Shown: positions 1 through 51,338, counted from the first letter of the whole stretch. The stretch: DNA of 60,302 nucleotides, filler included, from Rhizaria sp. SCN 62-66 (GCA_001724265.1; 5 parts of 5 records of this genome joined end to end with filler, not necessarily neighbours in it), one strand, 5' to 3'. A program made the numbers and translations. Notes: generated by a model from the letters alone, not told the origin.

Positions 1-581
1 GCCACCTTTATATACCCGCCCCGAAACGACCGTGGGTGGTGTTTGCCCCAGTGTGAGCCTGTGAGACTTGGTGTTTTATGCAGAATGTCGGTTGTGACAG
101 CTGTACATGTGCAAATTTGTGCGTCCTCGTATTGTTTAAAGTTGCACCGGGTTGCCAATACAATAGCTTTCTCTTCGCCCCTGGGGCTGGACAGTTGCTG
201 CTACGTCGTCGTGTACGGTCGCCAGCAAGGCAACTTTTTGCGCATTGAAAAAACAGCCCTTGGAGACCAAAGACGATGTCATTATGGATGAAAATAGTTT
301 TTCCATCGTTGAAACTAGTATAATCAACTCAGATCTCTCTGTTTTTCGCGGATCCTTCGTGCTTCCGAGACGAGACGAGTACCACTCAGCTAAACCACTG
401 CCTCCACAGTCCGCGCCCTGCCCAATCCCACGAATTGCCGCGCTATCCTGTCATATATCAGCAATCGCGTATTATTTTCTTTTTTATTGTCGACTTAGAT
501 CAATTATGCTTTTCCGCTCACACCCTCGACCGACATGTCACTTCCTCTTTGACTCACTTTGCTTCACAGACCACACACAAA

Positions 582-2192
582 ATGCGCTTCTCGCATCTCG
601 TGTGCGCCGCGCTCGTCGCGCTGGCGTCGATGGCCGCCTTCACCACTGCCACCATGACTGACTACACCCCCGAGGCTCTTGCCGACGAGGTTCACGACCT
701 CCCCGGCGCGCCCGCGAACGTGCCCTTCCGCCAGTTCGCCGGCTACATCCCCGTCGACGGCGGGAACCGCCAGATCTTCTACTGGTTCTTCGAGGCCTAC
801 CAGAGCCCCGAGTCCTCGCCCGTGATGTGGTGGACTTCCGGAGGTCCCGGTTGCGCCGGCACCGGTGTCGGCGGCCTCGGCGAGAACGGCCCCTTCGACG
901 TCTCGAAGAACGGCACCCTGTTCCTGCGTCCGTGGGCGTGGAACAAGTTCGCCAACACCGTCTACGTCGACCAGCCCGCCGGCGTGGGCTACTCGATCCT
1001 GGACAAGGAGGGCACTCCCTACGGCGACGCGCTCTCGGCCAAGGAGAACTACGAGTTCCTGGTTAACTTCTTCAAGCGCTTCCCCAACTTCGCGCAGAAC
1101 GAGTTCTACCTCTCGTCCGAGTCCTACGGCGGCCACTACGTGCCGACGCTGGCGAAGGAGATCTCTCTTCACGCCGACTCGCCGCTCAACTTCAAGGGCT
1201 TCGTGGTGGGCAACCCGCTGACGTACATGCCGTACCGCGACTTCGCCGAGGTGCACACGTACGCCACGCACCAGCTCGTGCCGGACCGCATCTGGCGCGA
1301 GTACACGGCCAAGTGCTACCCCGACCCCAAGACGCCTGAGACGAACCCCCCGCAGGCGCGCCACGCCGACTGCGACTCGCTTGAGTCGCGCATGCAGAGC
1401 TACGCGCGCGGCCTTGACCCCTACGCCATCGACTTCCCCGTGTGCACCGGCAACGCGCAGTCGCGGCTCTTCAAGACGGGCTCGTCCAAGCCCGTGATGG
1501 ACCAGAAGTCGATGATGCAGTACCGTCTGCGCCAGGCGCACTCGCTGTACAAGACCAGCATCCTGGGTGACTACTTCCCCGAGAACTACGAGCCCTGCGT
1601 CGAGACGCTTGGCACGGCGTACATGAACCAGCCCGGCGTGCGCCGCGCGCTCCACGTGTCCCCCAAGGCCAACGAGTGGGGCTACTGCGCCAACATCAAC
1701 TACAGCTCGTACGACATGATCACGTCGATGGTGCCCGTGTACCACCACTTGCGCAAGCACTACAGCAACAAGCTTAAGATGCTCATCTTCGCCGGCGACA
1801 ACGACGCCGTGTGCGCGCCCGTCGGCGAGCAGGTCTGGATCTGGGAGCAGGGCTGGCCCGTCAAGAAGGAGTGGGGCGCCTGGAAGATCAACGGTCAGGT
1901 ACGTAGCAATCGTCATATTTTGTTCAACTATCTTATTTCTACTGCATTGGCAATTAAATCAATCTTCTCACTAGTCACTATTAAGACACCACTTCTCTTT
2001 TTCTCAACCTAATATTTTATACTCTGTTTTCTCTCTCCCTCTTCTTTTCTTGCTGCGCAGGTCGGCGGCATGCACGTTAAGTTCGAGGGCCTGGACTTCA
2101 TGACCATCCACGGCGCCGGCCACATGTGCCCCGCCACGCGCCCCGAGCACACCCACACCGCAATTAAGAACTTCATCTTCGGCAAGCTCTAA
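582..2192 (+). CDS. Serine carboxypeptidase, peptidase family S10, secreted/vacuolar; exons 582-1898 and 2061-2192, 482 aa
   Basis: Hydrophobic signal peptide MRFSHLVCAALVALASMAAFTTA; S10 motifs WWTSGGPGCAG, YVDQPAGVGYS, SSESYGGHYVP (catalytic Ser) and GDNDAVC (Asp). Spliced exon 2 (VGGMHVKFEGLDFMTIHGAGHMCPATRP...FGKL-TAA) supplies the catalytic His motif HGAGHM, which the unspliced ORF lacks. Confidence 0.95.
1899..2060 (+). other. Spliceosomal intron (162 nt, phase 0) of the carboxypeptidase gene
   Basis: CAG|GTACGT donor, AT-rich body, CCTAAT branch-like site near 2008, long pyrimidine tract, GCAG| acceptor. Splicing restores the conserved GQV-GG...HGAGHM C-terminus. Confidence 0.93.
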
Positions 2193-2639
2193 GGCAGTTT
2201 AGGCTACATCACGCTAAACCTGCGCTCGTAAGGTAACTGTGACGTCAAGTGAGTACTTAGTTTTGCTTTATTTTAGTATAGTGAAGTTATTTATGTGAAG
2301 CTATGAACCAATATGAGTGTACATGTATGATGTAATACTGAATTAATGTAACATCACATGCACTTGTAAATTGGTGTGGTACAAAGTTTGATTACTTTTA
2401 TGTACTATCCTGATAGCTGTAACACCATCTTACATCGCTTGTTCACTCATATCGCACAAGTAGTATCTTAATACAATCAGAAAAATTTTGTATAATATAA
2501 ACAACTAAATATCGTAAATCGCATGGAAACTAGAAAGCACGCGCACCCACACGATGTTATCGCGCAAACGCAATGTGCTCTTTTGCCTTCTAATAAGCTT
2601 ATCTCTTCAAATGATTCAACTCATCAAACTCATCATAAT

Positions 2640-4613
2640 TTAGAACTGCATGAGCGACTCAATGTTATCGACACCGAGATACAGCTCGTCCTTAAGCTCG
2701 CCGTCGGCGATCAGGTGCGCCAAGCGCCTGTGCAGCGGGTCCAGCACGCTGCGCTTGCGCTGGGCCTCCTTGCGCTCAGTTGCGGTCTGCTTGCTCCGCC
2801 CGGTCTTAGCGCCGCCGCTTCGCGCGCCGCGCATGCCGCGGGGCACCCTATCGTCGTCGTCGTCGCCGTCGTCGTCCGCGGAGCCGTCGCCCGCGCTGTC
2901 GTCGCCGTCGGACGAGTCCCCGGCGCGCTCGTTGCGCTTGGCCAGCGCGCGAACCCAGCCGTCGCTGTCGTTGCCGTCGAGCAGCCCGTCCAGCTCGTCC
3001 TCGGCCGTCGCCGCGCGCCCGCTGCTGCCCACAGCCGCGCCCGCGGCCAGCGCGCGGCGGCGCCGGTCGTCGCGCTTGAGGCTGTGGCGGCACTGCGCTG
3101 ACAGCCGGCCCAGGAACAAGTACTCCTCCAGCGTGAGCCGGAACGGACGTCCATCGAGCACGCCCGCGCCGGCGCCGATCACGCTGCTCGCGCCGTACGC
3201 CTCACCAAAGCCGTACATCGACCCCGTCCCAGCGCCAGCGCCAGCGCTCAGGCTGTTGCTGTAGACGCTGTTGGTGGCGCTGGTCGCCGAGGCCGCGGCG
3301 GCGCGCACGCTGGCCGCGGCGCTGGCCCTGGCACCGGCGCCCGCGACCTGCAGCAGCAGCGGCAGGTGCGCGCTGCCGACGCTCTCCTCAATGTCGAGCG
3401 CGGGCAGGTGCGAGTAGCGCGCCTGCAGCGCCGAGTCGTAGAGCTCCTTGCGCTGGCGCGGTGGGACCCCGCGGCGGCGCAGCGTGGCCGCGACCTCGGT
3501 CCACATCGCCAGCCGCTCGCTGGGGTAGGCCCACAGCACCGAGCGTTGGAACGCGCTGATGAGCGCACGCGCCTCGCACAGCGCGCGCGGCAGTTGCGCT
3601 GTGCGCTCGGCGTTGGCGAGCGCGTCGGTGTCCGCGCCGGCCTCAGCCTCGGCGTCGGCCACCGCGTCATCGTCGTCGTCGCCGCCGTAGCGGTAGCCCT
3701 GCGCCGCGAGTGACCCAGGCACCGTGGCGGCCGACGCAGAGTGCGCTGACGAGACGGCCGTGGCGGCGGCGGCGGCGGCGCGCGCGGCGTCGTCCTCCTC
3801 GGCCTCCTCTTCCTCCTCGTCGTCGTAGCCATCGCCGTCGCCGCCGCCACCGTGCAGGTCCTCCCCGCGCGGCGGCGGCGCCAGGGTCGCGGCCACGGTC
3901 GCCGCGGCCAGCGCCTCGGGCCCGAACCACGCCGACGCGGCGCGCGCGACGCCCAGCCCGGCTCCAGACGCAGACGAAGACGCAGACACAGAAGCATTAC
4001 TGGTTGCAGTGGCTGCGGCTGCGGCGGCGGCTGCGGCGGCAGCCGCGTCGGCCTCAGCGGCGGCCGCGGCGGAGGCGGAGGCGAGGAGGGACATAGTCTG
4101 CAGCTCTGCGCGGGATATGCGCTCCGTGGGCATGCCCAGCAGGCGGCGCAGCGCGTTGGTGTTGGCTCGGTCGTCCACCGGCCCGCGGCCCCCCTGCTGC
4201 CGCGACGCCGCACGCCGAGACGACGAAGAAGAGGGCTTGCGGCGAGACATCGCTGTAGCTGCTGTCGGGGTGGCTGTGGCGCTGTGACTGGGACTGTGGT
4301 GGAATGGCGTGGGCAGCGTGGGGCGGTGGAACTCGCCGGAGCCCGCGACGGCCTCGGTGTGCGAGACGACCGCGGTCACGGTGCGGCCGCGCTTGCCGCC
4401 AAGCCTGCTGGCCGTCACGGTCGTGGTGGTCGTGGTGGTGGTTGTAGTGACCGTGGCGGTGAGCGGGCGGCCCCAGCCGAGGCGGCCGAAGACGACGGCC
4501 TCGGCGAGACGTAGCCGCGTGAGGCTAACCGTGAGCACGACGGGCGACAGCGTGACCGACGACAGCGGCGCCGGCAGCAGACTCGGCGTCACGCTGTACC
4601 CCCCCTGCTGCGG
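2640..4613 (-). CDS. Distal part of the spatacsin (SPG11)-like gene, in the same frame as 4614-18836 and separated from it only by one TAG
   Basis: Segments LRRLLGMPTERISRAELQTM, LWAYPSERLAMWTEVAATLRRRGVPP, LTLEEYLFLGRLSAQC and LHRRLAHLIADGEL resemble, in order, the distal helical region of spatacsin as I recall it from animal and plant sequences. Ends in TAA at 2640-2642. An alternative independent start is ATG 4250 (MSRRK). Confidence 0.65.
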   Translation of the reverse strand, partial: PQQGGYSVTPSLLPAPLSSVTLSPVVLTVSLTRLRLAEAVVFGRLGWGRPLTATVTTTTTTTTTTVTASRLGGKRGRTVTAVVSHTEAVAGSGEFHRPTLPTPFHHSPSHSATATPTAATAMSRRKPSSSSSRRAASRQQGGRGPVDDRANTNALRRLLGMPTERISRAELQTMSLLASASAAAAAEADAAAAAAAAAAAATATSNASVSASSSASGAGLGVARAASAWFGPEALAAATVAATLAPPPRGEDLHGGGGDGDGYDDEEEEEAEEDDAARAAAAAATAVSSAHSASAATVPGSLAAQGYRYGGDDDDDAVADAEAEAGADTDALANAERTAQLPRALCEARALISAFQRSVLWAYPSERLAMWTEVAATLRRRGVPPRQRKELYDSALQARYSHLPALDIEESVGSAHLPLLLQVAGAGARASAAASVRAAAASATSATNSVYSNSLSAGAGAGTGSMYGFGEAYGASSVIGAGAGVLDGRPFRLTLEEYLFLGRLSAQCRHSLKRDDRRRRALAAGAAVGSSGRAATAEDELDGLLDGNDSDGWVRALAKRNERAGDSSDGDDSAGDGSADDDGDDDDDRVPRGMRGARSGGAKTGRSKQTATERKEAQRKRSVLDPLHRRLAHLIADGELKDELYLGVDNIESLMQF

Positions 4614-7600
4614 CTACGACTGAGCACGCAGAGAAACGGCGTGGCGGCAGAGCAGCGCGGCGGGCACGGGCACAGAGTCGGGCGTCTCGCACGCGGCCAC
4701 GGCGTGGCTCAGCGCCTTGAGCGCGCTGATGGGCACCCACGACGCCGCCGCGGCCGCCGCGGCGCTGCTACTGGCCGCCGAAGACGGGTTGTGGATCGAT
4801 AGCAGTGCGGAGGCCGTGGATGATGCCACGCTCGCGGTGCCCGTTGCGGACTCGGCTGCGGCGGACGCGGCTTCAGTCGCGTCGGAAGCCGCGAGAGCAT
4901 TGGCAGCGCCGGTGCCGCTGTTGGCTGCGACACGGTGGGTCGTTGCGAGAGCGGTTGACTTAAGCCCCAGCGCGCGGGCCTGGCCGGCGGGCGCGAGCGC
5001 GGGCAGCAGGGCCACGGGCACGCCCGCCGCGGGCGCGGGCAGCGCACGCAGAGCCAGTGGGTGCGCGCCGGTCGCAGTGGCGGCCGCGCCATTGCCGCTA
5101 CATCCCGGCTCTGGCTTGGTCCTAACGCGGAGCGCGGCATCGACGGCGGCAGGCAGTGCTGGCGCGGCGGCGGCGACGCGCACGGCCGCGGCGGCCGCGG
5201 AGGCCGGCGTATCAAAGGTGAGCTGTGCGAGCAGCGACGAGAGCGCGAACGGCACGCCGCACGCGAGTGCGCGGCCCATGCCGATGCCCAGGCCCAGCGA
5301 CGTCGACAGCGCGCGCGTGCTGCTGCTGGGGCCGCTGCGCTTCGCGGCGACACCGCGCGCGCTGGCCGGGATGAGAGCCCCGACGGCCAACGGGGAGCCT
5401 GCAGCAGCGGGGTGCGCCACAGGAGTTGCGGCGGCGGAAGCGGCGGCGATGCGTGCGTACATGCGGCTGGCGGCGAGCAGCGGGCGGTTGGCATCCGCGC
5501 GCGCGTGCGTGGCCATGGCCATGGAGGCGACGTCGATGGCCGCGGCGGCGAGCTGGTCCGCGAAGCGCTCCCACTGGTCGCGCCGCTGCTGCCGCTGCGA
5601 CCGCGCCAGCACCACCGGGAACAGGTCGAAGCCGTTCGCGGCTGCAGCAGCGGTGGCGGCACTCTTGCGGCTGCGGCCGTGGCTAAGGTTCGCGGGCACG
5701 AACGCATCCGCGGCGGAGTGGCTGGCGGCGCCGAGGCGCGGCGCGGGCAGAGTGGTGGAGCCGGCGACTGGCAGCGCGGCGACGGCGAGCCAGCTCTGCT
5801 GCAGTGATGTGTTGTTCGCCGCCGCAGAGGGCTGCAGCGGGGCCGCAGCCGCGGAGTGCGCGAGCGAGAAGGTGCGCGCGCCGTACACGGCCCAGCGGCG
5901 CTCGCACGTGCGCAGCGAGAGGAAGCCCGTCGACAGCAGCAGGCGCACCACGTTGGCGCGCGCGCGGGCCGCCGTCGCCGTCGCTGACAGGTGCAGCTGC
6001 GACAGCGGGACGGCTGCGCTGTCCGCGGCGGCGGCAGCGGCAGCGCTGGCGGCGAGGTTCGCCGTGGGCGTGGCGCTGCTGCTGTTGTTGAGCAGCGAGC
6101 TGAAGAGCGCGAGCGCGGCGTCGATCAGCACGTGCACGTGCAGCGCGCCCGGCGGGTCCGCGGGCGCCGCGCCCACCAACGGGCTCGGCGCGGGTACAGA
6201 CGCAGACGCAGACGCAGTTTCGCTGGTGCTGTGGAGCGAGGTAAGCGTCTTAAAGAGCGTCTCCGCGCGCGCGGCCTTAGCGCGGCGCGAGGACGGCGGC
6301 GACGCCGACTCAGCAATGCCGTGCGTGAACACAGTCTCGACGTCGCCAGTCACGCTCTTATCGTTGCTGCTGCTGTTGTTGCTGGTGCGAGAAGCGAGGG
6401 CGTAGGTGTAGACGTAGCCCATGCCCTCGACGGCGGCGCCCACAGCGTCGGTCAGCGAGCGCTGTAGCCACGGCAGCGACAGCAGCTGGCGCCTAAACAG
6501 CGCGCGCGCGAGCCGGGACTTGGCCAGCGTCGCGCCGGGCACCGCGGTCTTGCTCGAAGCGTCAGCGCTGGAAGCGGCGGCGGCACGCAGGTCGGCGACG
6601 GCAGTGCTCGCGCCAGCGTTAACTTCAGTGAAAAGCGCGCTGCTGCTGCCGCGCGCGCGGTAGCCGGAGCCCAGAGCGCGCGCCAGCGAAAGCTCGACAG
6701 TCATGCTGCCAGTGTCGTCAGTAGTCTCCACCGTGGACGCATTGCCATTGCCGCTGTTGCTATCGTTAGACGGCGCGGCAGTGGGCGCGGGGCCCATCGC
6801 CATGGTGCCGCCGAGCGCGGCGCTGGCGGCGGCCTCGTCGGCTTCGTCTGCGCCAACGCCCGCGCTCGCCGCTGCGGCCGCCGCGACAGACGCGAGCGGC
6901 ACCGCGCCCAGCGCGGGCGCGGCGTCGGTGCCCGCGACGGGCAGCCCCTCCAGCGCGCGCGAACGCAGCAGCAGCGCAATCGCGTGCGCGACGGCGCCGC
7001 GGCGCGCGAACGGCACGCCCGCGGTCGCCGAGACGGCGGCGGCAGTCGCGGCAGCTGCGGCAGCCGCGGTGGGCGACTGGCCGGCCCTGGCGGCGCCCGC
7101 GGCGGCCGCCGCGGCGGCCTCAGGCGCGGCGGCGAGCACGGCGGTGCGCAGCTTGGTGTGGCGCGCGCCATGCAGGCTCGCGGCGACGCGGCGGCGGCTC
7201 TGTTCGACCTCGGGAGCGTCGGCCGCCAGCGCGTGTTGCGCGCGAAGGGCGCGCGCGCACTGCGCAGTGAAGCGCGTCAGGTGATAGAAGGCGGACCGCG
7301 ACGTCGACAGCACGCCGTTGAAGCCACCGTTACGAGCGACTTCGTGACCGTCGTCGTCGCCGTCGTCGTCGTTGTCGCTGTCGTCGGCGGGGGCGGCGCA
7401 ATGAAGCCCGCGCCAGTCGGCGGCCGCGGCGCCACCAACGTCGCCGCCCGCGCGCGCGTCGCCAGTGGCAAGCGCGGCGGCGGTGCGCGCCAGCGAGCGC
7501 AGCGGCGAGCGCGGGAGAAAGACGCGCGCGGCCGTGGCGAGCAGCGCGGGGTGCCGCAGCAGGTAGTAGTTTACCGAGTCCGTCGTCAGCGTCGTCAGCA

Positions 7601-10600
7601 GCGGCAGCAGCACCGAGTCAGAGAACGCGGGCCCGCTGAACGCGCAGCCAGCGCCCGCACTGGCGCTGGCGCTCGTCATGTTAGACTGGGCGGGCGCGGG
7701 CGCGGTGATGGCCTCGTTGAGCGGCGGCGCAAAGGGCAGAGCGGTGACTGTGGGCGCGGCGGCCAGAGCTTCGGCCAGCGCAGCCCAGCCGTCGCTAGCG
7801 CCGTGAGCATTGTTGCTGCTGGCATTAGTACTCGCGGCCATGGAGGCAGAGAGCGCGCGCAGTGAGTGCAGCGCCTGCGCCCGGGTGAGCCCTGCCGTCG
7901 CCAATACCGCGTCCACGGTCGAAACGGCGGGCGTGACGTTGACGCTGGCGCCGGCCTCCGCGGGCAGCGACACTTCGATGCTGTCGTTGTTGCCGGTCGC
8001 AGCGTCAGCTTCGGCGGCAGCGGCGACGTTGCTGCGGGCGTGCGCGCGCGTAACCGTGGCGGTGACGACGCCGGTGCCGCTGGTGATGCGGTGGCTGCGG
8101 ATGAGCTCCACCAGCAGCAGCGCGTTCACGCGCGCAGTCTGCACGCCCACCGCGCCCCCAGTCGCCGCCGCCGCCGCCTCCACGCCCGCGTTCGCGCGCG
8201 CAGTCGCACTCACGCTCAGGTCGCAGTGCGCGTGTGCGGCGGGCAGGGAGGAGAGGATGCCAGAGGAAGCGATCTGGCCGTGCAGCCACAGCAGCATGCC
8301 CGCGGTCGACGCCGACAGCGACGTCGGCAGCGTCATCGCAAACAAAGGGGCCTTCTTCAGCCCACTGTTGTTGTGGTTAGCGCCCTCACCGCCGGCAGTC
8401 GCGGTGGCGCTGGCGGCGGCGAGCGCGAGCGCGGAGGCCTGCGTGACGAGCGCGGGCGCGCGCGGGTGGAGCGCCATCAGCAGCGTCAGACACTGCGGGT
8501 CGCCGCTGGCTACGGTCAGCGAACCACCCAGCCCGCGCTCGGCGTCGGCCGCCACGGTGCGGCTACCGTGCGCGGCGTGCGCCGAGTCCTGCGTGGCGTC
8601 GGCGACCGAGGCGGCGGCGGCGCGCACCAGAGCGGGCGCCACTGGCGGCGGCTGCGACAGCCACAACGGGCCCAGCACCGACGGCGCGGCCGCCGCAAGG
8701 GCCGTGGCCGCGGACAGGGAGGCTTGGGCCGCAGTTGCGGACTTGCCGCCCTTGCCGTGGTGCTTGCCCCTCGGGCCAACAGTGGAGGAGACCTCAGGCA
8801 TAATGCGGTCGCCACCGTTTGTGATCGTACCGGTCGATGCCGCCACAGAGTCGTGGGCGACGTCACCGTCGCTGCTCGCGCTGCTCGCGGTGCCGAGCGT
8901 GGCCGTGACCGCGGGGGCGGTGGCGAGCGCGTAGAGCGCGCGCAGCTCGGCGGCGGCCGCGTGCAGCGTAGGCGCCTCGGCGACGCGCCGCAGCGCCCTC
9001 AGCAGCGTCAGCGCCGCGGCGCCGCCGGTGCCCGCGGTCATCGACTCCGCCACACTGCTCGGCAGCATAGCGCTCACACTCGCGCTGGCGCTAGAGCAAG
9101 CGCTGCCGTTGCCGTTGCCGTTGCCGTTGCTGTCGCGGAGGGCGACGTGCGGGACGGGGATGTGGCACGACGCGGGCGTGGGCGCCGCGGGCGGGACGAA
9201 GGCCAGCGGCGACAGCGTCAGCGCGGCCGACGTGTACGCAGCCGTCGCCTCCATCGCGCTCAGCCGCAGCTGGGCAGCACTCGGCGCGCTCTGCAACGAT
9301 GACAGCGACGACGAGGACGACAGCGAAGCGAGGCGGGCGGCCTCGAGCGCGCGCGCGGCGCAGCGCGGCGGAGCCTGGCGCAGCAGCAGCGCGAGGGCCA
9401 CCACGCTCTGGTGCAGGCGCGCGCGCCAGCGGGCGGCGGAGACGGCAAGCTGGGCGGCGCTCGCAGTGCGCGCGCGGGAGGAAACCGCCGCCGCCGCCGC
9501 GCCACTGCTGCTGCCAGAGCTCTTGCCGCTGATGTTGTTGTTGTTAAGACGCGTGGTAAGCAGACGACCGCCGGCGCGGGGGCGGAACGCGGTCACGGGC
9601 GCCCAAGGCAGCTCGACACCCGTGGCGGCGACCGCGACGCGCCCCGCGGCCTCGGCGGCGGCCTCACTCGCGGCCTCGGCGGCCTCAGCGGCGGCGGTGG
9701 CAGTCGTGGCGGTCGCGGCGGCGATCTCAGAGGGTGTGGGGAGCCCCGCGAGCTTGAGCAGGCGCATCGCGTCCCAGGCGCTCAGCCCGCCCACGCCCTC
9801 AAACGCCGCCGCCTCGCACTGCGGCAGCCCCGCGGCAGACGCAACAGACGCGGCAGAAGCAGCAGAAGCGGCAGCGGGAGCGTTAGCGTGCAAGCGGGAG
9901 TGCGCGCGCGCGGCCGCGGCCGCGGCGGCGGCGGCGGCGACGACGGCGGGATGGTGGCACGAGCGGCAGCGGCCGCAGCGGCGGGCGCCCGCGGAGTTCA
10001 GGGCCGCAGTGAGCGCAGCCAGCCCGTCGGCGGAGCCCGCCTTGGCAAGCAGCTCGAGCGCGCGGCCACGGGCAGTGCTCTCGTCGTCGTTGCTGTGCCT
10101 GACATCGGCGCTGCTCGTCGTGATGCGCGTGATAAACTCGTCGAAGAACGCCGTCGCGGCGGCGTAGACGTCGAGAACGCGCGATACGAGCGCGCGGGGG
10201 GGCACGCGCAACAGCCGCACGCTCCCGCCGGCGGGGCTCGCACTGGCGCTGGCGCTGGCGCTGGCGCTCGTCGCGGCGGCAGCGGCGGCAGCGCTGGAGT
10301 TACCGCCCTTGAGAGAGATGGGCAGTGCGGCTGCGAGAGCGGGGTCTAAGTACCCGACTAAGGGGCTGAACAGGTGCGCCATCGCAGCAGACACGGGCAG
10401 CGTCCCCACAGTGGCAGCATCTGATGTCCCCGTATGCGACGAAGTGACCGTGAGCAGGAGCAGGTACAGGTACACCCTGTGCACAGCGGCCGTGAACGTG
10501 TCCAGTACAGTCAAAGCGCGCGCCGCAGCCGCTTCCTCACGAGCCGTGCTCCTGCGGCGACTGCTGCTGAAGCTCTCGCTCTTGCGTTCGTCGGCAACAC

Positions 10601-13600
10601 CGTCGTCATCGCCGTCGCTTCCCTCATCGTCGTCGGCAGTGGCGAGCGCGGTGACGGCCAGCGCGTCGCGCAGCGACTCCCCTGTGTTGACGCCGCACAC
10701 ACCGGCACCGGCACTCGCGGCGGCGGCGGCGGCGGCGGCGGCGGAGGGCGCCGCCTTGGTGAGGGGCGACGCGATCACGAGGGCGCACAGCAGACGCAGC
10801 AGCGTCGCCGTCCCCGTCTCTGCAGCCGCCACAGTGTTGCTAGTGCAACTGTTGGAATTGCTGTCCCCGGCGCCAGACGCGGCGGCGATGGCGGCGAGCG
10901 GGGGCAGCGGCAGCGGGATCAGGGCCGGGCCCGCGGGCGCGTATGCCACGGCGACGGCGGCGACGGCGGCCGCGACGCCGCGGCCCTTGCGCAGCAGCGA
11001 CACGGGAGTTACGCGCACGCGTGCGACGCCGTAGTGACCGCTGGCGCCGCCACTCGAGCCTGCGGCCGCGGCCGCCGCGGCCGCCGCGGCCGTGAGCGTC
11101 GGCAGCGGCGGCGCCAGCGCCAGCGCCTGCGCTTGCTCCTGCCCGGTCTCACCGACAGAGAGCGTGAGCGTGAGCGGCCGCGCGTTGCGCATCAGCGCGT
11201 AGGCGAATGGCACGCCCGCGCCAGGTGCCACAGCAGTCGCGGCGGCCGCGGCGGGCGTGCCGGGCCGCGCCGACAGCGCCAGCAGCCGCTGCGCGGGCCG
11301 CGAGAGTGTAGCGGCGGCGGCCGCGGCCGCGGCGGCGCTGTGCTCGCGCAGAGCGTATGCGCGCGCGGCGGCCACGGCGGCCGCGAAGTGCTCGTTCGCG
11401 CTCACAGCGGTGCGCCGGGCGCTGCGTCGCGCGCTCTTTGTCGCCGCGAGAACAACGACGGCGGATGACGCAGCAGCAGTAGCAGCAGCGGCGGCAGAGG
11501 CGGCGGCAGAGGCGGGCGCTGGGCCGGTGGTAAAGACGCGCGCGGCGACGTGCTCCAGCTCAGTAAGCAACGACAGCAACGAGGCGTCGCCACGGTAGGT
11601 CGCGATGTCGCCCGTCGACAGCTCCAGCGCGTGCAGCGCGCTACGCCGGTCCAGCAGCGCGCGCGTGCTCACCGTCACCACGCTCGCGGCGCTGGCGGAC
11701 GCGCTAGAGGCGGAGGCGGCGGAGACTGAGACGGGCTCGAGCGCGGTGCCGGCCAGGGGCGTGAAGGCGGCGCGGTGCAGTGCCAGATAGCCGCTGAGCC
11801 CGGGCTCGAGGCGCGCAAGCAGAGGCAGCAGCGGGCCCTCCGGCGGCAGCGAGCCCACAAAGCAGTCTCCGCGCAGCGCAGCGCTCCTACCATGTGCCAA
11901 TGCGGGGAGTGAGACTGCGTCTGCGGCGCGCGGGCAGAGGCGCGGGCGCAGTAGCGGCGTGGGCAGCGCGGCGGCGACGTCGCCGGCGCTACCGGTGGGC
12001 CACGCGGGCGCGGCGAGCGGGAAGGCGGCGAGCGTGCCCAGCGCGGCCAGCGGGGAGCCCACCGCGAGCAGCGCAGAGAGCAGCGGCGCGCCGCACGATA
12101 GCGCCGCGGAGACGTCCACGGGCGAGTCCGCCAGCGGCGCCGCAGGGTGGCCGCTGCTGTTTCCAGCAGTGAGCAGCTTTTGGCGGCGGCGAAATGGCGA
12201 GATGGCGGCCAGCGGGTGCTGCGAGCGCAGGATGTAGCGCAGATACGGCCGCAGCAGCCGGCTGACCTTGCGGCCCAGCACGGACACTGCCACCACGTCG
12301 TTGGTCCCGTAGTCGCCCTCGTCGTCGCTGTCGTCGTCGCCCTCGTTGTCACCGTGACCGGTCGAGCTCTTGCCATCAGCGTCACGACTCTTGTCGCTGT
12401 CGTTGTTCTCAGCGGCGACTGCGGCGGTGAGAGCAGCGAGCAGCGCCTCCGCGGCAGTCTTGCTCTTGCTCCGACCGCTGCCAGCGGCAGCCCGAGCGCT
12501 GTGTGCGTTGCCGGCGTTGTTAAGCAGCGTCATGACGGCGCTGAGCAGGCCCAGCTCGTACCAGCGGCCCTCGCGGCGGTACGCCTCGCCAGCGGCCCAG
12601 CCAGACAGGGTGATCGCCGGCAGCCGCGCCACGCCGCCACGCACGGTCATTGGAGCGGCGCCGGCGCTACCACTAGGAAAGAGCAGCGCGCGCGGCGCGG
12701 GCATGCCGAGACCGGCGGCGGGCGAGGTGAGGTAGCAGTAGCGCTGCGTGAGCGACGAGAAGGACGACAGCCGGTAGTGCGACAGATACGTCTGCAGCAT
12801 CAGGTGCGGCGACGACGGCGCTGACAGCTGCAGCAGCCGCGCCCGCACGCGCGCAGCCGCTCTGTCCGCAGCGGTACTGCTACTTTTGTTGTTCAGTGCA
12901 GCACTGGTATCGCTGCGGCGCGCGGCGGCGAGCACGGCGTCGGTACCGGCGGGCGTGGCGGCGAAGGGCAGCGGCATGGCCTGCGCCAGGTGCGCGATGA
13001 CCCACACGTGGAGCGGCGAGAGGCGGCCGAAAGGCAGCAGCAGCGACAGGTCCGGCGTGGTCACGCCCGCGATGGGCGCGTTCGGCGAGTCGTTCGCGCT
13101 CGAGCTCGCGTTCACTGTGGCCGCGCCCGCCGCCGCAGTGGCCGAGGCGACCGCGGCAGAGAAGGAGTAGCTCTGCACCGACGGCGGCGCCGCGGGCAGC
13201 GCGCGCGCGTACGCAGGGAACTTGAAGTTATGCCGCGCGCCGTCCGTACCGCCCTCGGCGGTGGCGTCTTCGGGGTGGGCGGAAGCAAGGGCGGAGCGGT
13301 GGTGCGTGGTGAGCGGCTTGGACAGACCGAAAAAAGACAGATTGCCGCTCACGAGAGACGACATGAACTTCTTCTCAACGGCCCCAGCTCCAGCGCTTTG
13401 AGCAGCGCCACTAGAGTGAGTCGCGCCCTTCACGGCGGCGCCGGTGCTTTGCGCAGAGACGGAGCTGGAGCTGGCGGGCGCCGCGGGCGGTGGCACGGCG
13501 TTTTGCACGCGCAGCAGCAGTCCGCCGCGGACGAGCTGACGCACGAGCGGCGCGAAGTCGGGCAGCGCACCGCCCGCGGGACCGAAAAAGTCCGCCCCAC

Positions 13601-16600
13601 CCAACTCTTTCTTCGCCGCGTCCACGCCTGCGGCACCAGCGCCCAGGGTGGCGTCGTGGTGCTTGGCGAAAACCATCGCGAAGTACTTCTTCTGCGCAAC
13701 CGCGGGCGTGTCGGGAAGGTTCTCGATGAAGACGCCGCGCGTGGCCAGCGCAGTGACGAGGCACGCGCGCGCGGCGAGCGGGGCGCGGGGCAGCGCGGCG
13801 GCGACCAGGTCGGTCAGGAAGAAGGCCAGCGGGTTCGCGCGCGGGCGCGGGCACAGCAGGTGACCCGTGGGAGCGAGCAGCGTGTGCGCGAGGGACAGCG
13901 AGCCTGCCCAGGCGGCGAGGCCCGCGAAGTCGCAGTGGTCGCACAGGTAGCACAGGCGCGCGGCGGCCGAGAGCAGGGCCAGGCGCTGCGAGGGCGGCAG
14001 CGACAGGAACACCAGGGGCAGCGCTGAGGATGGCGCAGGTGTAAACGGAGCGAATGGGGCCTCGTCGTCACAGGCGGCGGGACTGCTCGCGGCAGATTCG
14101 CCGCCGGTGTGGAGCCAGGCGGCGGGGATCTCGGTGGCGAAGAACTCCTCGTCCACGGGGTTGAAGAGCAGGCGAGACGTAAAGGCGCCGGGCGCAAACG
14201 CGCGCAGCCGCGGCGCCGCAGCGGCGCTCTCACTGTCACGGTCACGGTCGCGGCCACGCTGCTGCTTCTTTGCCGTTTTCTGTTTCTGCCTCTTGAGATC
14301 GTCGTCCCCGTCACTCTCGGCGTCGGTGTCGTCCTCGGTGTCGGTGAGGACGACGACGCGCGGGCGCACGGGCCCCGGCGCGATGGTGAGGCGCTGCAGC
14401 GAGATGAGCGTCTCGGCGGGCGCAGTAGGCACGCGCGCGTCCACGTCAGTCACATCGCGCCGGTGCCGCAGAGCCAGCCACGACAGCCCGGCGTCCGCAG
14501 AACCATTACCGCTGCCGCCAATGCCAGCGGGGGACTGCGCCGACAGGGAGTCCGCGGAGGACGAGACGGGGGGCTGCGAGCGGGAGACAGGGAGACCGAC
14601 AAAAGCACCGTTGCTGCCCCTATTGTTGTCGTTGAGACTAACAGCACTGTCGGGAGCGGGGAGCGCAGGCAGACAGCCCTCATCGTCGTCATCAGCGATG
14701 CGACTGACGTTACCGTTCTGCTGCTGCTGCTGCAGTGCGGCCATGAGGCGCGCGGGCGACACCGAAGTCAGGCCGCCACCCTGGCCATCGGTGGACATGA
14801 AAGCGGCGGCCATCAGCACCGCGCCCGAGGCGGGGCCCGCGGGGCGGCCGCGCTTGGCAAATGCGCCCTCTTGCGGCGCCTCTTCGTCGTCGGCGGCGGC
14901 GTCCTTGCCTTCGGCGCTGTCGCCGTCCCTGCGCACGCGGTGTAGCGAGCACGTGCACTTGGCGTCCGCGCCGTTGTGATCACCCGCACTGTTGCTCAGT
15001 GTGAGGCCGAGAGCGGAGGCGTAGCGCGCGACCGCGGGCGACGGGGAGCCCGGGGCCGCGCCCGCCGCGGCGGCGATCGCGGCCGGATCAAACGGGCGCT
15101 CGTCGCTCGCGCTCGAAACACCGCCTGCGTTCGAGTGCGACGACGCGAGCTTCTTCTTGCCCGCTCTCAACACGGCCTCGCTCTTAGAGTTCGAAACATT
15201 AGCAGCGGCGGCGGCAGCGGCGGCGGCGGCGGCCTCCGTGCCGTGCACTGCGCAGGCCCTGCGGCGCGCGAGGTGGCGCCGCAGCCGCGGGTGGCCGCGC
15301 ATGACAGCGCGGACGCGGGTCAGTGCGAGCGGCACTGCGGCCGCGGCCAGCAGCCCCGCCGCGGCGGCCGTGGCGCCCGCGCCCTCCCCAGCGCCGCCCG
15401 CGGAGGCCGCGGCAGCGGCCGTGAAGGGGAGCGCGGTGAAGCGCGCGTGGCGGGCGGCGCCATCGGTGGGGGGCGCGACGCCCACGTCTGAGGGCGCGGT
15501 GCCGCCGCAGAGCGCGGCGTCCCGGTCCAGTAGTACGCGGAGGCGCGCATCGAGCGGCCACGCCAGCACGTCAGCGGCCGGCGTGGCGAAGTAGCCGTAG
15601 CCGGAGAAGCCAGGCACGCCCGCGGCGGCGCCGAACTCGGATGCGAGCGGGGGAGCGAAGGCGGGCGCCGTGGCGAGGCACGCCGCGCACACGTCCGTGT
15701 AGCCCGTCGACCGGTGCGGCAGAGAGTTCGGGTGGAAGGGCAGCCCCGCCGCGGCCGTAACCGCAGCCAGCCGTTCCGCGTCGCTCACGGGGACACCGTG
15801 CGCGCACACAGCCGCGGCGCCAGTACCGCTAGAGCCAGAGCCGCCAGTGCCGCTTGCGCCGGACGCAGCGGCGGCGTTCTTGGCGGCGACGGCGGCGTTG
15901 TGATGATGCACCGCGGCGGCGGCGGCGGCGTCGTTGTCGTGCGGCAGCAGCTGGCGCAGCATCGGCACCGAGTCGAAGAAGGCGTTCTCGCTGGGGTGCG
16001 GCGGGCGGTGCTGCGCCAGCGGGGACACCACGCCCGCCTCGACGTCGTGCACGTCGCCGACGCGCGCCAACCACGCCAGCCGCGACTGCGCGGGCGCCTC
16101 GGTGAACGACGACCACGACGCCGGCAGCGTCACGGCCACACCCGCCGCGGCGGCGGCCACGGCGGCCGCGGGCGCCGTGATTAGCTCGCCGCCCGTCGCG
16201 CCGCCCGCGCCCGGCAGCGAAAAGGTCACGATGGCCGCGGGCGCAGACGCGGCGGCAGCGGCGGCAGCCGCGGCGGCCGCAGCGGCGGCGGCGGCGGGCG
16301 TGTCCTCGGTCTCCGCGGCCGCGGCGGCCGAAGCGGCGGCGGCGGCGGCCGTGGCGGCACCGCGGGCGTGCGCCCGCCAGCCCGCGCGCAGCATGGCGTA
16401 GTGCAGCGCGAACGAGGCCGGGTCGGAGCCGGGCCGCGCGAAGCGGCCGTAGGCGCGCCGCACCGCCGGTCGCAGCGAGCGCAGCGCGGCGGCGTTCTGG
16501 AACGCCGTCTGCTGAGACTGTGCATGTGACTGTTGCTGATGACGACGGTTAATATTGCCGTTGAGAGTGTCATCGTCGTCGTCGTCAGCAAAGCCGTCGA

Positions 16601-16608
16601 CGTCGTCA

Positions 16609-16653
<45 letters not shown>

Positions 16654-18836
16654 GCAATGGCGAGCAGCTCGTCGAGCGAGTCCTCGCCGACCCCCGGCTC
16701 GGCCTCGGCCGCCACGCACGACGCCGTGTCGGCCACGGCCGCGCCCGCCGCGGCGGCCGCAGCGACCGCGGCCGCAGCGGGCGCGAGCGAGACACCCGCG
16801 CGCTGCGCGACGCTGAGGAAGCGGCTGGGCCCCTGCAGCGGCAGCCGCGGGCGGTCGAGCAGCCGCGCGCACGGCGCCGCGCCCGCCACTGCTGGGGCCA
16901 CGTCCAGGAAGGTCACCTCGGCGTGGCTCTGCGCCTGGCGCAGCGAGGCCTCATCCTCCGACGACGCGGACTCCGCGGCAGCGGCGGCGGCGGCAGCGGC
17001 GGCGGAGGCGGCGAGCGACGCGGCTGTAGAGGCTGAGGCCGAGGATGCCAAAGCGGCCGCAGCAGACGCCGACGACGGGAGCTGCGAGAGCAGGTTGGCG
17101 AGCGCGGGAGTGGCCGACGCGGCGGCGGTCGCAGCGGCGGCGGAAGCGGCGGCCGTGGCGGCGGCTGCGGCGGCCGCGGCCGAGGCGGCGGAGTCGGCGG
17201 CGTCGCCACCCACCGCGCCCGCAGCGGCCGCAGCGCCGGCGCCGGCGGAGGAGGCGGCCGCGGGCGCGAAGGCCGAGGCCGAGGCCAAGGACGCCGGGAC
17301 CGGGGCCGCGGTCGTCGACGACAGCGTCGCCACCGACGCCGAGGAGGACTGCAGTGACGGCAGCGGCGGCATCAGCGAAGCCGGAATGCCTGCGGCCTGT
17401 GCCTGCGAGAGCAGTATGGACTCGAGCTGGCCCGCGGCAGCCGCGGCAACAGCGGCGGCGGCGGTGGCAGCGGCGGTCGCGGTCGCCACCGAAGCGGCCG
17501 CCGAGCCAGCGCCCCCGCCAGCGTTGGGGCCAGAGCCGGCGGTGGCAGCAACGGAGCCGGAACCAGCGCCTGCATTAGCGCCGGCCGAGCCGGGCTTGCC
17601 GTCCGCCCTCTGGCCCTGGCCCTGCTGCTGCGGGCCCTGCTTCCCCTGCCCCTGTCCCTGCCCTTGCTGCTGCGCAGCGGCCTGCGACCCCTGCCCCTGC
17701 TGTGCGTCGCCGCCCTGCCCCGCTGCCGCGCCGTCGGCCGCCGCCGCGCCACGCTGCCTCTGTCGCGCCTGATGCTGCTGCTGCTGTTGCTGCTGTTGCT
17801 GTTGCTGCTGCTGGCGGAGCTCCGCCGCGGTCACCAGCACGGGCGCGTTGGCGGCGTGCGTCAGCCGGCCCGAAAGCAGCGCGTCGGCGGCGGCGCGCGC
17901 GTGGAAGCCCGCGCCGTTTGCACCACTGCCACCGCCGCTGCCGCTGCTGCTGCCGCTGCTGCTGCCGCCGGCATGAGAGCCGCCGCGGCGTTGGGTCGGG
18001 AAAATGGGCCGGGAGCCGTCGCCGGCGCGGCCCGCGGCCGAGGCGGGCTCGGACTCGTCGAAAAGGTATTTGAAGTCGTCTCGAACGCCGCCGCGGGACT
18101 CTGTGTTGGCAGTCGTTGTGCTATGAGCGTCGTCTTCATTAGCGTCGTCATCGTCGTCGTTGTTGCCAGCCTTGCCGCGCGCACTCGCAGTGGCAGCAGC
18201 AGCGGCGGCAGCAGCGGCGGCGGCAGCGCGTTGTTGTTGCTTAGTCGAGGTGAGCACAGCGCCAGCAGCGAGAATAAAGTCGTCATTGTCGTCGTCCTCG
18301 TCGTCGTTCTGGCCGCCGCTCTTGACCTCGGCCTCCGAGGCAGCGCCGCCGCCGCCAGTGCGCCCGCCCGCCGCGGCCGCGAGCGCCGAGGCCGCCGCGC
18401 TGGCGATGGCAACGAGCTCACCGTCGTTCGATCCGGCGGCCGAAGGCAGCAACAGCTCCGCCGCCGAGGCCGCCGCGGCGCCCGCGCCCGCCGCTGCGGC
18501 GCCCGCAGGGGGCACATAGGCGCCGGGCAGCAGCGGCGCGCTCGCAGCAGGTGAGCCGAGGGACCTCTCTGCGGCGGCCGCGGCGGCGACCGAGTGGGCC
18601 GAATGTGCCATCGCCGCGGCGGAAGCCGACAGCGACGATAGCGTGATCGGCCAGCCGAGGCCCGTCAGCACGCCTGCGCCGGCACCGGCGTTGGCCCCCG
18701 AGCCGGCGGCGGCGGCGGCGGCGGCGAGCGCGGGCGCCGGGCGCACCGGCAGCGTTGCAAAGCCGCCGCTGGCGCCGACCGCGCGGGCACCCGAGCCAGG
18801 GCCCAGGCCGGCGGCCGCGGCGGCGGCCACGTCGGC
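4614..18836 (-). CDS. Giant Ala-rich spatacsin (SPG11)-like protein, main ORF, 5' truncated at the contig end
   Basis: About 4,740 uninterrupted codons. Islands of ordered sequence collinear with recalled human spatacsin motifs: YLCDHCDFAGLAAWAG (cf. YLTARHDWLNIILWIG), LVTALATRGVF...DFAPLVRQLVRGG (cf. ILDKLARNGVF...DFECFLLRLSRIGG), HLMLQTYLSHYRL (cf. HLLYVYLDCYKL), ALLAVGSPLAALGTL (cf. SMLLEGHTLLALATT), ALELSTGDIATYRGD (cf. FLELLGLDSLKLRVD). The CDS is well supported; the family call is from memory. Confidence 0.65.
17775..17813 (-). repeat. Coding CAG/CAA trinucleotide repeat (poly-Gln, Q13)
   Basis: 13 consecutive CTG/TTG triplets on the + strand, inside the giant ORF. Confidence 0.9.
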
Positions 18837-18837
18837 G

Positions 18838-18937
18838 NNNNNNNNNNNNNNNNNNNNNNNNNNNNNNNNNNNNNNNNNNNNTTAATTAATTAANNNNNNN
18901 NNNNNNNNNNNNNNNNNNNNNNNNNNNNNNNNNNNNN
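18838..18937. other. Artificial contig linker N44-TTAATTAATTAA-N44
   Basis: Identical 100-nt structure occurs four times; TTAATTAATTAA places stops in all six frames. Confidence 0.99.
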
Positions 18938-18938
18938 C

Positions 18939-21900
18939 GTGGCCGAGGCCGACGCTGCGGCGGTGCGGCGCGACGCGCTCGCGCGCGTGCGCGCCGAGGC
19001 CGCCGCGCGGGCCGATGCCGGCGCAGCGCGCGCTGAGGCTGAGGCCGCAAGCGAACGCGCCGCCGCGGCGGAAGCTGCGTCTGCGGCCGCGCGCGCGGCG
19101 CTGCTGGCGAGCCAGGCAGCGGCGCGGGAGGCGCAGGCCGCGCGCCGCGCCGCGCTCGACGCCGCCGACGCAGCCACTAAGGACGCGGTTGCGGCGCGCA
19201 AGGAAGCTGAGCGGGCCTCTGCAGCTGTTGCGAGCGAGGTCACTGCTGCCGAGGCCGCGCGCGAGGCTGCCGAGGCCGCGGCGGCCACTGCGCGCGCTGA
19301 GTTGGCGCTGGCGCGGGGCGAGATTGCGGCCGTGCGCGAGAGCGAGCGCACGGCCAAGGCTGCTGCGGCTGCTGCGCGCGCGACTGCGGCCGCGGCGACC
19401 GAGGCTGAGGCTGCGTCAGGCGAGGCGGCTGCGGCCGCACAGGCCGGTGAGGCCGCTGCCAAGATCAAGCTCGCCGCCGCGCTCGCCGCCGCCACCGCTG
19501 CGCAGACCCGCGCCGAGGAGGCCGAGGCTGCGCTGGCTGCGGCCGAGAGCGCGGGCGTCGAGAGCCGCCGCGACGGGTCCACCGCCGCGAAGCGCGCTGC
19601 TGCTGCGGCTGCGCAGGCGGAGACTGCGGCTGAGGAGGCTGCTGCGGCGACGGCGGAGGCCACGGCCGCGCACGCTGACGCCGCGCGGGCACGCGCCGCT
19701 GTTGCCGCCGCCGAGGCGCGCGCTGCCGCCGCGGAGACCGCGCTGAAGGCCGCCGAAACTGAGTCCGCGGCCGCTCTGGCGGCGGCCGCGCTGGCGACGA
19801 CTGCCGCGCGAAGCAGCGAGACCGCGCGCAAATCGTCTCAGGCGCAGGCAGCAGCTGCGAGCGAAGAGGCTATGGCCGCGCGCGCCGAGGCCGCTGCTGC
19901 CGTGGCCGCTGCGACTGCTGCTGAGGCCGCCGCAGCACGGTCTACTGCGGAGGCTGAGGGCGCGCGTGCTGAGCTCGCGCAGCTGGCTCAGCGTCTGTCC
20001 GTGGCCGACGTGGCTGTGGAGCGCTTGCAACGTGCTGCGGACGAGGCTGGTGCGGCGGCATCTACTGCGGAATCCAAGTTAGCTGCTGCTGAAGCTAAGG
20101 CTGCCGCTGCAGAGGCGAAGGCCGCTGACACCCATCACAAGGCTGCTGTTGCTGAACAAAAGCTTTCCGCAACTGAAGACATGGTTGCCGCGCTAGAGAA
20201 GAAGGTTGCTGATGCCGAGGATCGGACTGCTGCTGCCGAAGACAGGGCTGTCACTGCTGAGGAAAAGGCCACTGCTGCTGAAAGCAGGGCTGATGCTGCT
20301 GAGACCAAGATTGAGGCGCTATCTGCCGTTCTCGTTGCTATGCGTGCTGAGGCTGTCGCTGCTGTCGAGGCCTCTGCCGCCGCTCTCCGTGATGCCGTCA
20401 CCGCGGCCGCCGAACGTGAAACTGCCGCTGCCGCTGCCGCTGCCGCTGCAGCTGCCGCTGATGCTGCTGGTGCTGATGTCGACGCTGCTGTGCGTGATGC
20501 TGAGAACGCTCGCACCGAAGCAGAGGCTGCCCGCGCTGAGGCTGCCGTTGCGCGCTCTGAGGCCGAGGCTGCCGTTGCTGCTGCCACTGCGGCGCGCGCT
20601 GAGGCTGAGGCTGATGCCGCACAGTCACGGACCGCTCTCGACAACGCCCAGGAGGCGCTGAACTCAGCGACCGCCGCCGCTGCGACCGCTGAAGCTGCGC
20701 TGTTTGCAGTGCAGACTGACCTGTCAGCCGTCCAGTCCGAGCTCGCCGCCACTGCGGCCGCGCGCGACGCCGCTGAGAGCGCGCTGAGCGAGTCTGAGGC
20801 ACAGCGCCGCGCGCTGGCGGCCGCGTTGGATTTTGCGAACGGAGACGGGGAAAGCGCGGCGACCCGTTTTGCAGCCGCTGAGGCACGTTGCACCGAGCTG
20901 GAATCGGCTGTTGCTGAGGCTGAGGCGCGCGCGCGTACTGCAAGCGCTGGGCGCGATTCATTTGAGAGCGCTCATACTGATTCTGAGCGTAAGTTCTCCG
21001 AGTCTGAAAGCAAGTGCGCCGAATTCGAGCGCCAATGCGCGGCGCTCGCGCTTCAGTGCGGCGCACTGGAGGCGTTGAGCGAGGAGCGCCAGGCACTCTG
21101 CGAGCGCGCTGAGGCTGAACGTGCCACTGCTGTTGCCGCAGTTGCTGAGAGCGAGTCGAAGTGGGACGAGCTGCAGACCAAGTACACTGAACTTGAGTCT
21201 AACAACGCCGCGGCGCAACGCGAAAAGCAAGATGCGCTCGCTAAGTGTCAGATGTTTGAGTTGCGTTGCGAGGAGATGACGGTGCAGTGCGCCGAACTCG
21301 AGGCCAAGTGTGGTGATGGCGCGGCCGAGAACAGCACGCTGCTGCTTAAGGTTAGCGCGCTCGAGGCGAAGTGCAGCGAACTTGAAGCGCGCGGTAGCGG
21401 TGAGCGCAGTGCGGGCGACGTTGATCTCGCTGCGAAGTACAGCGAGTTGGAGTTCAAGTACGACAACGTTAACTCCGAGTACACCAAGCTCCTATCTGAG
21501 CACCTTGCGCTTGAAAATGCGAGCAGCGAGCTCGAGCTTAAGTGCGCAGACCTTGCGAAGGCACGTGATGCTGCAGGCGCCTCCTGCGCTGCTGCAGAGG
21601 GTGACTGTGCGACCGCAGCCGCTGCGTGTTCTACCGCAGAGGCTGCGTTTGCAGCGAGTGAAAACGCACGAGACGAAGCTGAGGCCGCTTGCGTGCGTCT
21701 TGAAGAGAAGCTTGCTGAGAGCGAGAATCAGCGCATGGAGCTTGAGAAGACAGTTGCTGAGATGCAAAGCGAAGCTGACGGTTTGTGGGAGAAGCTTGCA
21801 GACACTGAGAGTGAGATCGCTGTGCTGGTTGCGCAGCGCGAGGCCTTCGAGTGCGAATGCGAGGAGCTGCGCCAGCAAACTGCGCGTGGCGACTCTGAGG

Positions 21901-30202: not shown

Positions 30203-30302
30203 NNNNNNNNNNNNNNNNNNNNNNNNNNNNNNNNNNNNNNNNNNNNTTAATTAATTAANNNNNNNNNNNNNNNNNNNNNNNNNNNNNNNNNNNNNNNNNN
30301 NN
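30203..30302. other. Artificial contig linker N44-TTAATTAATTAA-N44
   Basis: Same 100-nt linker. Confidence 0.99.
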
Positions 30303-37658: not shown

Positions 37659-37690
<32 letters not shown>

Positions 37691-40600: not shown

Positions 40601-40816
40601 GGCCTCGCCGACCTCCTCGCGCCACCCGCCCGCGCCGGTGCCGGCCGCCACGCGCGCGGCGGCGGCGGCCGCGGCCACGGCGGGGCTGGGGATCGACGCC
40701 GCCGTGCCCAGCGCCGCGCGCGAAGACGACGACGAGGACGCCGACAGCTTCGCCGCCGCGTCAGCCGCGGCGGCTGCGGCGGCGGCCACGGCGGCGGTCT
40801 CGGCCGCAGCGGCTGC
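35714..40816 (-). CDS. TLDc (Oxr1/NCOA7-like) domain protein with large low-complexity insertions, 5' truncated
   Basis: C-terminus NALMLYSATQVGVGDSNGMALLLDAQLSEAHSQPTAVFGNPAL...RFQCQAVECWGFGF-TGA matches the TLDc end pattern (L.lD..L....S....F.N..L...F....vE.WGF). Frame open to the contig end. Confidence 0.75.
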
Positions 40817-40916
40817 NNNNNNNNNNNNNNNNNNNNNNNNNNNNNNNNNNNNNNNNNNNNTTAATTAATTAANNNNNNNNNNNNNNNNNNNNNNNNNNNN
40901 NNNNNNNNNNNNNNNN
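40817..40916. other. Artificial contig linker N44-TTAATTAATTAA-N44
   Basis: Same 100-nt linker. Confidence 0.99.
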
Positions 40917-51238: not shown

Positions 51239-51338
51239 NNNNNNNNNNNNNNNNNNNNNNNNNNNNNNNNNNNNNNNNNNNNTTAATTAATTAANNNNNN
51301 NNNNNNNNNNNNNNNNNNNNNNNNNNNNNNNNNNNNNN
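51239..51338. other. Artificial contig linker N44-TTAATTAATTAA-N44
   Basis: Same 100-nt linker. Confidence 0.99.

Follow-up and report, generated by a model that had tools for sequence, protein, structure and literature searches.

The window analysed here is the whole stretch of 60,302 nucleotides from Rhizaria sp. SCN 62-66 (GCA_001724265.1), and its minus strand carries a giant reading frame in which a single in-frame TAG stands at 4616..4614. On that strand the codons around it read CTG CGT GCT CAG TCG TAG CCG CAG CAG GGG GGG TAC, so that the base at +4 is C. One open reading frame (ORF) of 4,738 amino acids (18830..4614) and another of 650 amino acids (4592..2640) lie in a common frame on its two sides; the original prediction had described them as one frame split by a single TAG, which direct reading and a frame check bear out. 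With X written in place of the TAG, no stop follows until a TAA at 2642..2640, which gives an open frame of 5,396 residues; beyond the TAA the DNA becomes AT-rich. The part upstream of the TAG (4617..18837, minus strand) has 4,740 codons, is open to the end of its contig, and has guanine plus cytosine (GC) contents of 0.73, 0.65 and 0.85 at the first, second and third codon positions. The part downstream (2640..4613, minus strand) has 657 codons in addition to the TAA, with corresponding values of 0.73, 0.61 and 0.88. The public gene call P0002 (3,734 amino acids) corresponds to the upstream ORF and ends at the TAG.

The DNA that follows the TAG has the composition of coding sequence. The 363 nucleotides that separate it from the first in-frame ATG at 4250 (4251..4613, minus strand) have a GC content of 0.725 and a third-position GC content (GC3) of 0.88, as against a GC content of 0.36-0.49 in six true intergenic stretches, and the coding look that had been ascribed to this segment is thereby confirmed. 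Immediately 3' of the TAG, the GC content over 80 nucleotides is 0.74, compared with 0.31-0.49 after the nine other ORF ends examined. Ten ORF ends were considered in all; setting aside the TAG itself and one end formed by a linker leaves eight true gene ends (2010-2012, 2640-2642, 30006-30008, 35307-35309, 35714-35716, 41543-41545, 48080-48082 and 59958-59960), and across these eight it holds that the TAG, unlike the other gene ends, is not followed by AT-rich DNA. In-frame TAG is extremely rare in this genome sample: ten ORF pieces comprise 18,031 codons, and no in-frame stop other than the one at 4616..4614 occurs among them. The original prediction had likewise noted no second in-frame TAG, in roughly 17,000 codons.

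The window is a composite. Four linkers of the form N44-TTAATTAATTAA-N44 (18838-18937, 30203-30302, 40817-40916 and 51239-51338) show that it consists of five contigs of the bin, artificially joined end to end. The artificial linker at 18838..18937, a feature of no strand, marks the end of the giant gene's contig. Since the frame runs off that contig at 18837, the gene is 5'-incomplete; the 4,738-residue ORF therefore keeps the common frame with the 650-residue ORF that had been claimed for it and loses the complete 5' end. An apparent TAA at 51286 belongs to a linker and is no gene end. ORFs that touch a linker are likewise truncated (ends at 18830, 40789 and 51286; starts at 18939, 30519 and 51525), and gene adjacency across a linker is meaningless.

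The TAG is real. Four public runs (X1, X3, X4 and X6) were compared, all as contigs, a form in which rare variants are dropped. Contigs bearing the TAG are present in three of the four, which represent three studies with dates from 2015 to 2025: record 1 of X1 (4091-7108), record 8 of X3 (4091-6184) and record 24 of X6 (4318-4856) each span the site with 0 other letters. X1 and X3 are possible source samples, a flag that X6, from a separate study dated 2025, does not carry. The metagenome contig L001 (6,212 bp) also has the TAG and is identical to the window across the 6,184 positions compared. In the fourth run, X4, a polyA RNA library, the pieces 4298-4451 and 4830-5532 flank the TAG and none among those listed bridges it; these are the longest pieces only, and the lack of a bridging piece is uninformative on whether the transcript is continuous. 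A sequencing or assembly error in which CAG was read as TAG, a caveat raised in the original prediction, might be suspected at a single site within a draft multi-contig metagenome bin. It is very unlikely, because the separately assembled contigs of X1, X3 and X6 as well as L001 all carry the identical base, and we reject it, giving it next to no weight. Over 8 kb, the four runs differ only at one base (8802, X4) and by one inserted T (8183, X4), and because they differ so little the samples are effectively one clone.

Comparison with other sequences indicates what the interrupted frame used to be. A long-candidate homologue search with the region spanning the TAG gave one match among 1,108, the gene's own upstream ORF P0002, and phmmer with 1,199 amino acids spanning the TAG found, among 1.84 billion representative proteins, only P0002 and P0003, the latter a fragment of 249 amino acids (phmmer E 4e-4). 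P0003 matches the C-terminal domain encoded by the downstream ORF (BLASTP E 3e-14; alignment A1). A profile built from A1 had no match among 7,999 longer candidates and, among 8,000 candidates of similar length, matched P0003 alone. When metagenome contigs were scanned with A1, two loci were found, L001 and L002. L002 comprises 20.4 kb (1-20399) of a 310-kb contig and comes from a distant relative with 53% GC. The orthologue that it encodes, P0004, takes up one frame (2..10621), which is open 5' and counts 3,539 codons or more; no in-frame stop interrupts these 3,539 codons, and the frame ends in the homologous domain represented by P0003. This domain, of about 326 amino acids (2643..3620 in the window, minus strand), is the best-conserved block of the protein and matches P0004 with a BLASTP E value of 2e-11 in addition to its match with P0003 in A1.

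Conserved blocks lie both before and after the TAG. When the complete frame (P0001, the TAG being its residue 4739) was compared with P0004 by BLASTP, the matches listed included four significant high-scoring segment pairs (HSPs), three of them upstream of the TAG (residues 917-1103, E 1e-6; 1589-1707, E 9e-9; 3737-3787, E 7e-4) and one downstream (5083-5251, E 2e-11), which is the top HSP. Five weaker HSPs (E 0.042-1.7) all lie upstream and include 4294-4314 and 4409-4423 just before the TAG. These nine HSPs are collinear, and two further weak ones (E 3.9 and 5.1) fall off the diagonal. Because the orthologue in L002 is one frame that is collinear on both sides of the TAG, the two ORFs are, as judged from this alignment, parts of one ancestral gene, and the collinear continuation past the TAG that had been proposed from the window is upheld by an uninterrupted orthologue. 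The interval that bears the TAG measures 660 amino acids in the window protein and 126 in the relative, with a local alignment score of 41 against 43.5 ± 6.6 for shuffles; it thus aligns no better than shuffled sequence, and the ancestral residue at the site is therefore not inferable. Alanine makes up 26% of the window protein and 14% of the relative's orthologue, and the comparison of the two sequences indicates a massive low-complexity expansion of the protein in the GC-rich lineage. The gaps between blocks common to both proteins are up to five times longer in the window protein. The neighbours of the orthologue in L002 are ATG27-like, RING-finger and metallophosphatase genes, and synteny with the S10 carboxypeptidase of the window is lost.

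We interpret the TAG as a recent nonsense substitution that has become fixed in a near-clonal environmental lineage with standard stop codons, with at most basal leakage past it, and we put the probability of this reading at about 0.6. It supposes that the organism reads the standard stop codons and that a lineage-specific change of a single base created a premature TAG at 4616..4614, inside a linker that is expanded and little conserved, the gene as a whole being a giant of more than 5,397 codons. Protein synthesis would for the most part stop at the TAG, yielding a protein that lacks its last 657 residues, conserved C-terminal domain included, and the full-length protein would be made only through basal leakage past UAG-C, which is plausible. 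The substitution would have to be recent, given that the 657 downstream codons are still open and the conserved domain is kept, and it would have been fixed in the near-clonal lineage that the public runs have sampled. The surroundings of the TAG are of a kind in which such a change could arise, being unalignable, under low constraint and rich in alanine (26%), with many codons one step from TAG. The case shares with the nonsense alleles of natural isolates a single in-frame stop ahead of an intact coding sequence, an orthologue without interruption and the absence, in the genes examined, of any other hint at a change of code; the base itself is backed by independent data. The original prediction had mentioned a nonsense allele as a caveat; we rank it first. 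If it is correct, an orphan gene of this uncultured eukaryote would simply carry an ordinary nonsense variant.

Several observations weigh against this reading, and the first three of them are also points in which the case departs from natural-isolate nonsense alleles. The TAG is the sole form in every run covering the site, over about ten years, so that the change must at least be tolerated, and the part cut off holds the protein's best-conserved block. No other letter at 4614-4616, such as the sense allele CAG, occurs in the contigs of the four runs, which are near-identical over 8 kb. The 657 downstream codons are open with unchanged codon bias and show no sign of decay. Stop codon usage points the same way: the eight true gene ends use TAA in seven cases, TGA in one and TAG in none, an unusual pattern at a GC3 of about 0.85. 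The absence of TAG from these ends is what a code with UAG as sense and UAA as the dominant stop would show, and by our own rough Dirichlet estimate the stop usage favours a two-stop model by about 5 to 1. We consider that the near-absence of in-frame TAG, together with a low prior, outweighs the argument from stop usage.

UAG might be a rare sense codon in this organism, through a young or weakly used reassignment in which a tRNA bearing the anticodon CUA would read it and only UAA and UGA would remain stops. Such a code would account for the preponderance of TAA despite the high GC3 and for a frame and a conserved domain that run on past the TAG. It would also agree with the status of TGA, which homology confirms as a real stop (the match to the TLDc profile reaches the final position, 170 of 170, at residue 1690 of a 1,691-residue ORF), and, according to the pertinent passages of PMC5304391, the two known codes that reassign UAG alone have both kept UAA as their dominant stop. 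The sample of stop usage is small, however, at eight gene ends, and codon counts speak against a sense UAG: in the ten ORF pieces TAG occurs once against 18,030 sense codons, of which the rarest, ATA, occurs 5 times and the rarest ending in G, AGG, 43 times. As a neutral synonym of CAG for glutamine, about 62 TAG codons would be expected (423 CAG; TTG/CTG ratio 0.146). The proposal that UAG is read as sense is thus not supported, TAG being at least five times rarer than any sense codon and serving as a stop in the relative. In L002, TAG ends two of the four complete genes, the giant orthologue among them, and is not found in frame in its 3,539 codons, the relative's code being inferred from these four gene ends only. 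No tRNA with anticodon CUA was found in the window, where ARAGORN gave one doubtful tRNA-Pro and Rfam 0 matches; the window holds no eRF1 gene either. The TAG site cannot be aligned with the relative, so that no amino acid can be assigned to it. The codes of exLh (UAG as leucine) and Iotanema spirale (UAG as glutamine), as described in the same passages, resemble the window in their in-frame TAG and TAA-dominated ends, with no TAG end in the window; they differ in having hundreds of in-frame UAG codons, compared with one in 18,031 codons here at an unalignable site, and in that a relative here uses TAG as a stop. For the known rhizarian with UAG as leucine, the count reported is 384 in-frame UAG in 71 genes (PMC5304391). 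We therefore hold a sense UAG to be highly doubtful. The same slender chance attaches to a more specific form of the idea, an early stage of stop-to-sense reassignment in which TAG would have been purged from gene ends, leaving TAA as the main stop, and would be reappearing rarely, in a low-constraint linker, with the relative as outgroup; were this so, the window would have caught a nuclear reassignment of UAG alone at its very beginning, something rarely seen, and the relative with its standard code would be there for comparison. Selected readthrough, in which a near-cognate tRNA would decode UAG-C in a useful fraction of ribosomes and give short and long forms of the protein, is unlikely, though not to be neglected. 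The long open extension, 657 intact codons of coding composition with the best-conserved domain, and the persistence of an unchanged TAG in three studies over about ten years would suit it, as would the C at +4; with respect to this base, readthrough is reported to follow the order C>U>G>A, with basal UAG readthrough of 1-2% in mammalian cells, but the same source also gives no significant rise in UAG readthrough with C at +4 in those cells (PMC4615788, relevant sections). The stop is UAG and not the leakier UGA of programmed readthrough in eukaryotic cellular genes. Hexamers of the type CAR-YYA are stimulatory downstream of leaky stops, and the hexamer found here, CCGCAG, does not fit this type. 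The RNA fold of the 146 nucleotides at 4625..4480 is not significant either (z -1.58; an equal or better fold in 13 of 200 shuffles). Persistence of the TAG says little, since the samples are one clone, and the 3,539-codon frame of the only relative found is free of stops, so that conservation of the stop cannot be shown. Coding conservation beyond the TAG is present in the comparison with the relative, and a recent nonsense mutation predicts the same. Programmed readthrough, which had been put forward together with reassignment, thus finds no signal except the C at +4. In the minimum-free-energy structure of 4480-4625 (minus strand), the segment GCGGCUAC, some 100 nucleotides downstream, is the pairing partner of GUAGCCGC, which comprises the TAG with its flanks.

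Two further explanations were weighed. By gene fission, the TAG would now terminate a shortened gene, and the downstream ORF would have its own expression, starting at the ATG at 4250 or one that follows it. In-frame ATGs do exist at 4250, 4133 and 4094, and the polyA RNA run has contigs after the TAG (3166-3364, 3429-3599 and 4298-4451) as well as before it, but the start of a transcript cannot be read from such contigs, and the RNA library may contain DNA. The ATGs are preceded by no AT-rich spacer such as the intergenic stretches of the window provide, the 363 nucleotides having kept their coding GC3, and we give fission only a slight chance. The TAG might also be removed from the transcript, by editing or through the splicing of a tiny intron that keeps the frame; the chance of this is slighter still. 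The organism does splice, with one clear intron at 46449-46762, and within ±150 nucleotides there are 35 GT..AG spans that include the TAG and preserve the frame (for example 30 nucleotides at 4637..4608); this number is nevertheless the chance expectation for such sequence, and the clear intron is 314 nucleotides long and AT-rich, with nothing similar around the TAG. The X6 contig spans the site unspliced, in a library that is labelled cDNA but rated 'probably DNA'. A fixed nonsense substitution remains the reading that we prefer to both. On that reading, the practical value of the TAG would be as a caution for annotation, since the gene is broken in two at this point in public gene calls and the window itself is made up of joined contigs.

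The original prediction had called the reading frame spatacsin-like from motifs that none of our searches, whether against Pfam, PDB or 1.84 billion proteins, could reproduce. The defining conserved part of spatacsin (SPG11) is described as the C-terminal Spatacsin_C (Pfam 14649) in the portion of bioRxiv 10.1101/2020.03.08.982389 that deals with it. Pfam-A searches with three pieces of the frame at E<=0.01 found no family; with the downstream 657 amino acids at E<=5, and with the last 306 amino acids and P0003 at E<=10, they returned noise only, Spatacsin_C being absent from both; and with the two halves of P0004 at E<=0.01 they found nothing. In PDB, phmmer at E<=10 matched 4,786 amino acids of the window protein to TIC100 and nucleophosmin only and P0004 to cyclin-L2 and ABCF1 only, all of it low-complexity noise, the presence of an SPG11 chain in PDB having been left unchecked in both searches. 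The ESM Atlas had no usable match for the C-terminal 839 amino acids of the relative's protein, and AlphaFold2, given an alignment of two sequences for the C-terminal domain, produced an unusable model (mean predicted local distance difference test score 42, predicted template modelling score 0.26). The window protein does resemble spatacsin in being very large and, by prediction, mostly helical, with a C-terminal domain of about 300 amino acids as its best-conserved part, and genes for trafficking proteins (DENN, GRIP and TLDc) lie on neighbouring contigs of the bin. It differs from it in having no match to Spatacsin_C, to any other Pfam family, to PDB or to the representative proteins, and in its missing N-terminus; the N-terminal, beta-propeller-like region with which spatacsin binds AP-5 would lie beyond the contig end at 18837, and in L002, too, the frame is open 5'. 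We therefore regard the identification as spatacsin as unsupported and file the gene as a giant, alanine-rich orphan, predicted to be mostly helical, which could still be a very distant relation of spatacsin.

The remainder of the window identifies its source as a eukaryote, through DENN, GRIP, TLDc and S10 domains and one spliceosomal intron in sequence drawn from wastewater and bioreactor metagenomes. The stretch is present, at least in part, in 14 runs from 8 studies (wastewater, bioreactor and activated sludge), and the organism thus recurs in wastewater and bioreactor data sets. A 94-nucleotide tRNA-Pro(CGG) called by ARAGORN at 4997-5090 (plus strand) lies within the GC-rich coding sequence, where Rfam has no tRNA at its gathering score, and it is probably a false positive. 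A scan of metagenome contigs with the window's aminotransferase found two loci, both distant prokaryotic enzymes (26-27% identity), and no more contigs of the organism; in the ESM Atlas the same protein matched generic families only. The gene for this aminotransferase, which is serine-palmitoyltransferase-like by its Pfam match, lies at 46278-48082 (plus strand). Its exon 1, at 46278-46448, has 57 codons and includes a hydrophobic helix; exon 2 begins at 46763. Its intron is canonical in its GT..AG ends, and its presence means that the organism is intron-poor and not intron-free. Very large membrane-trafficking proteins are encoded on the other contigs of the bin (18939-30008, 35714-40789 and 51525-59960); one is a coiled-coil protein that carries a GRIP domain at its C-terminus, and the two others have a TLDc and a DENN domain, respectively.

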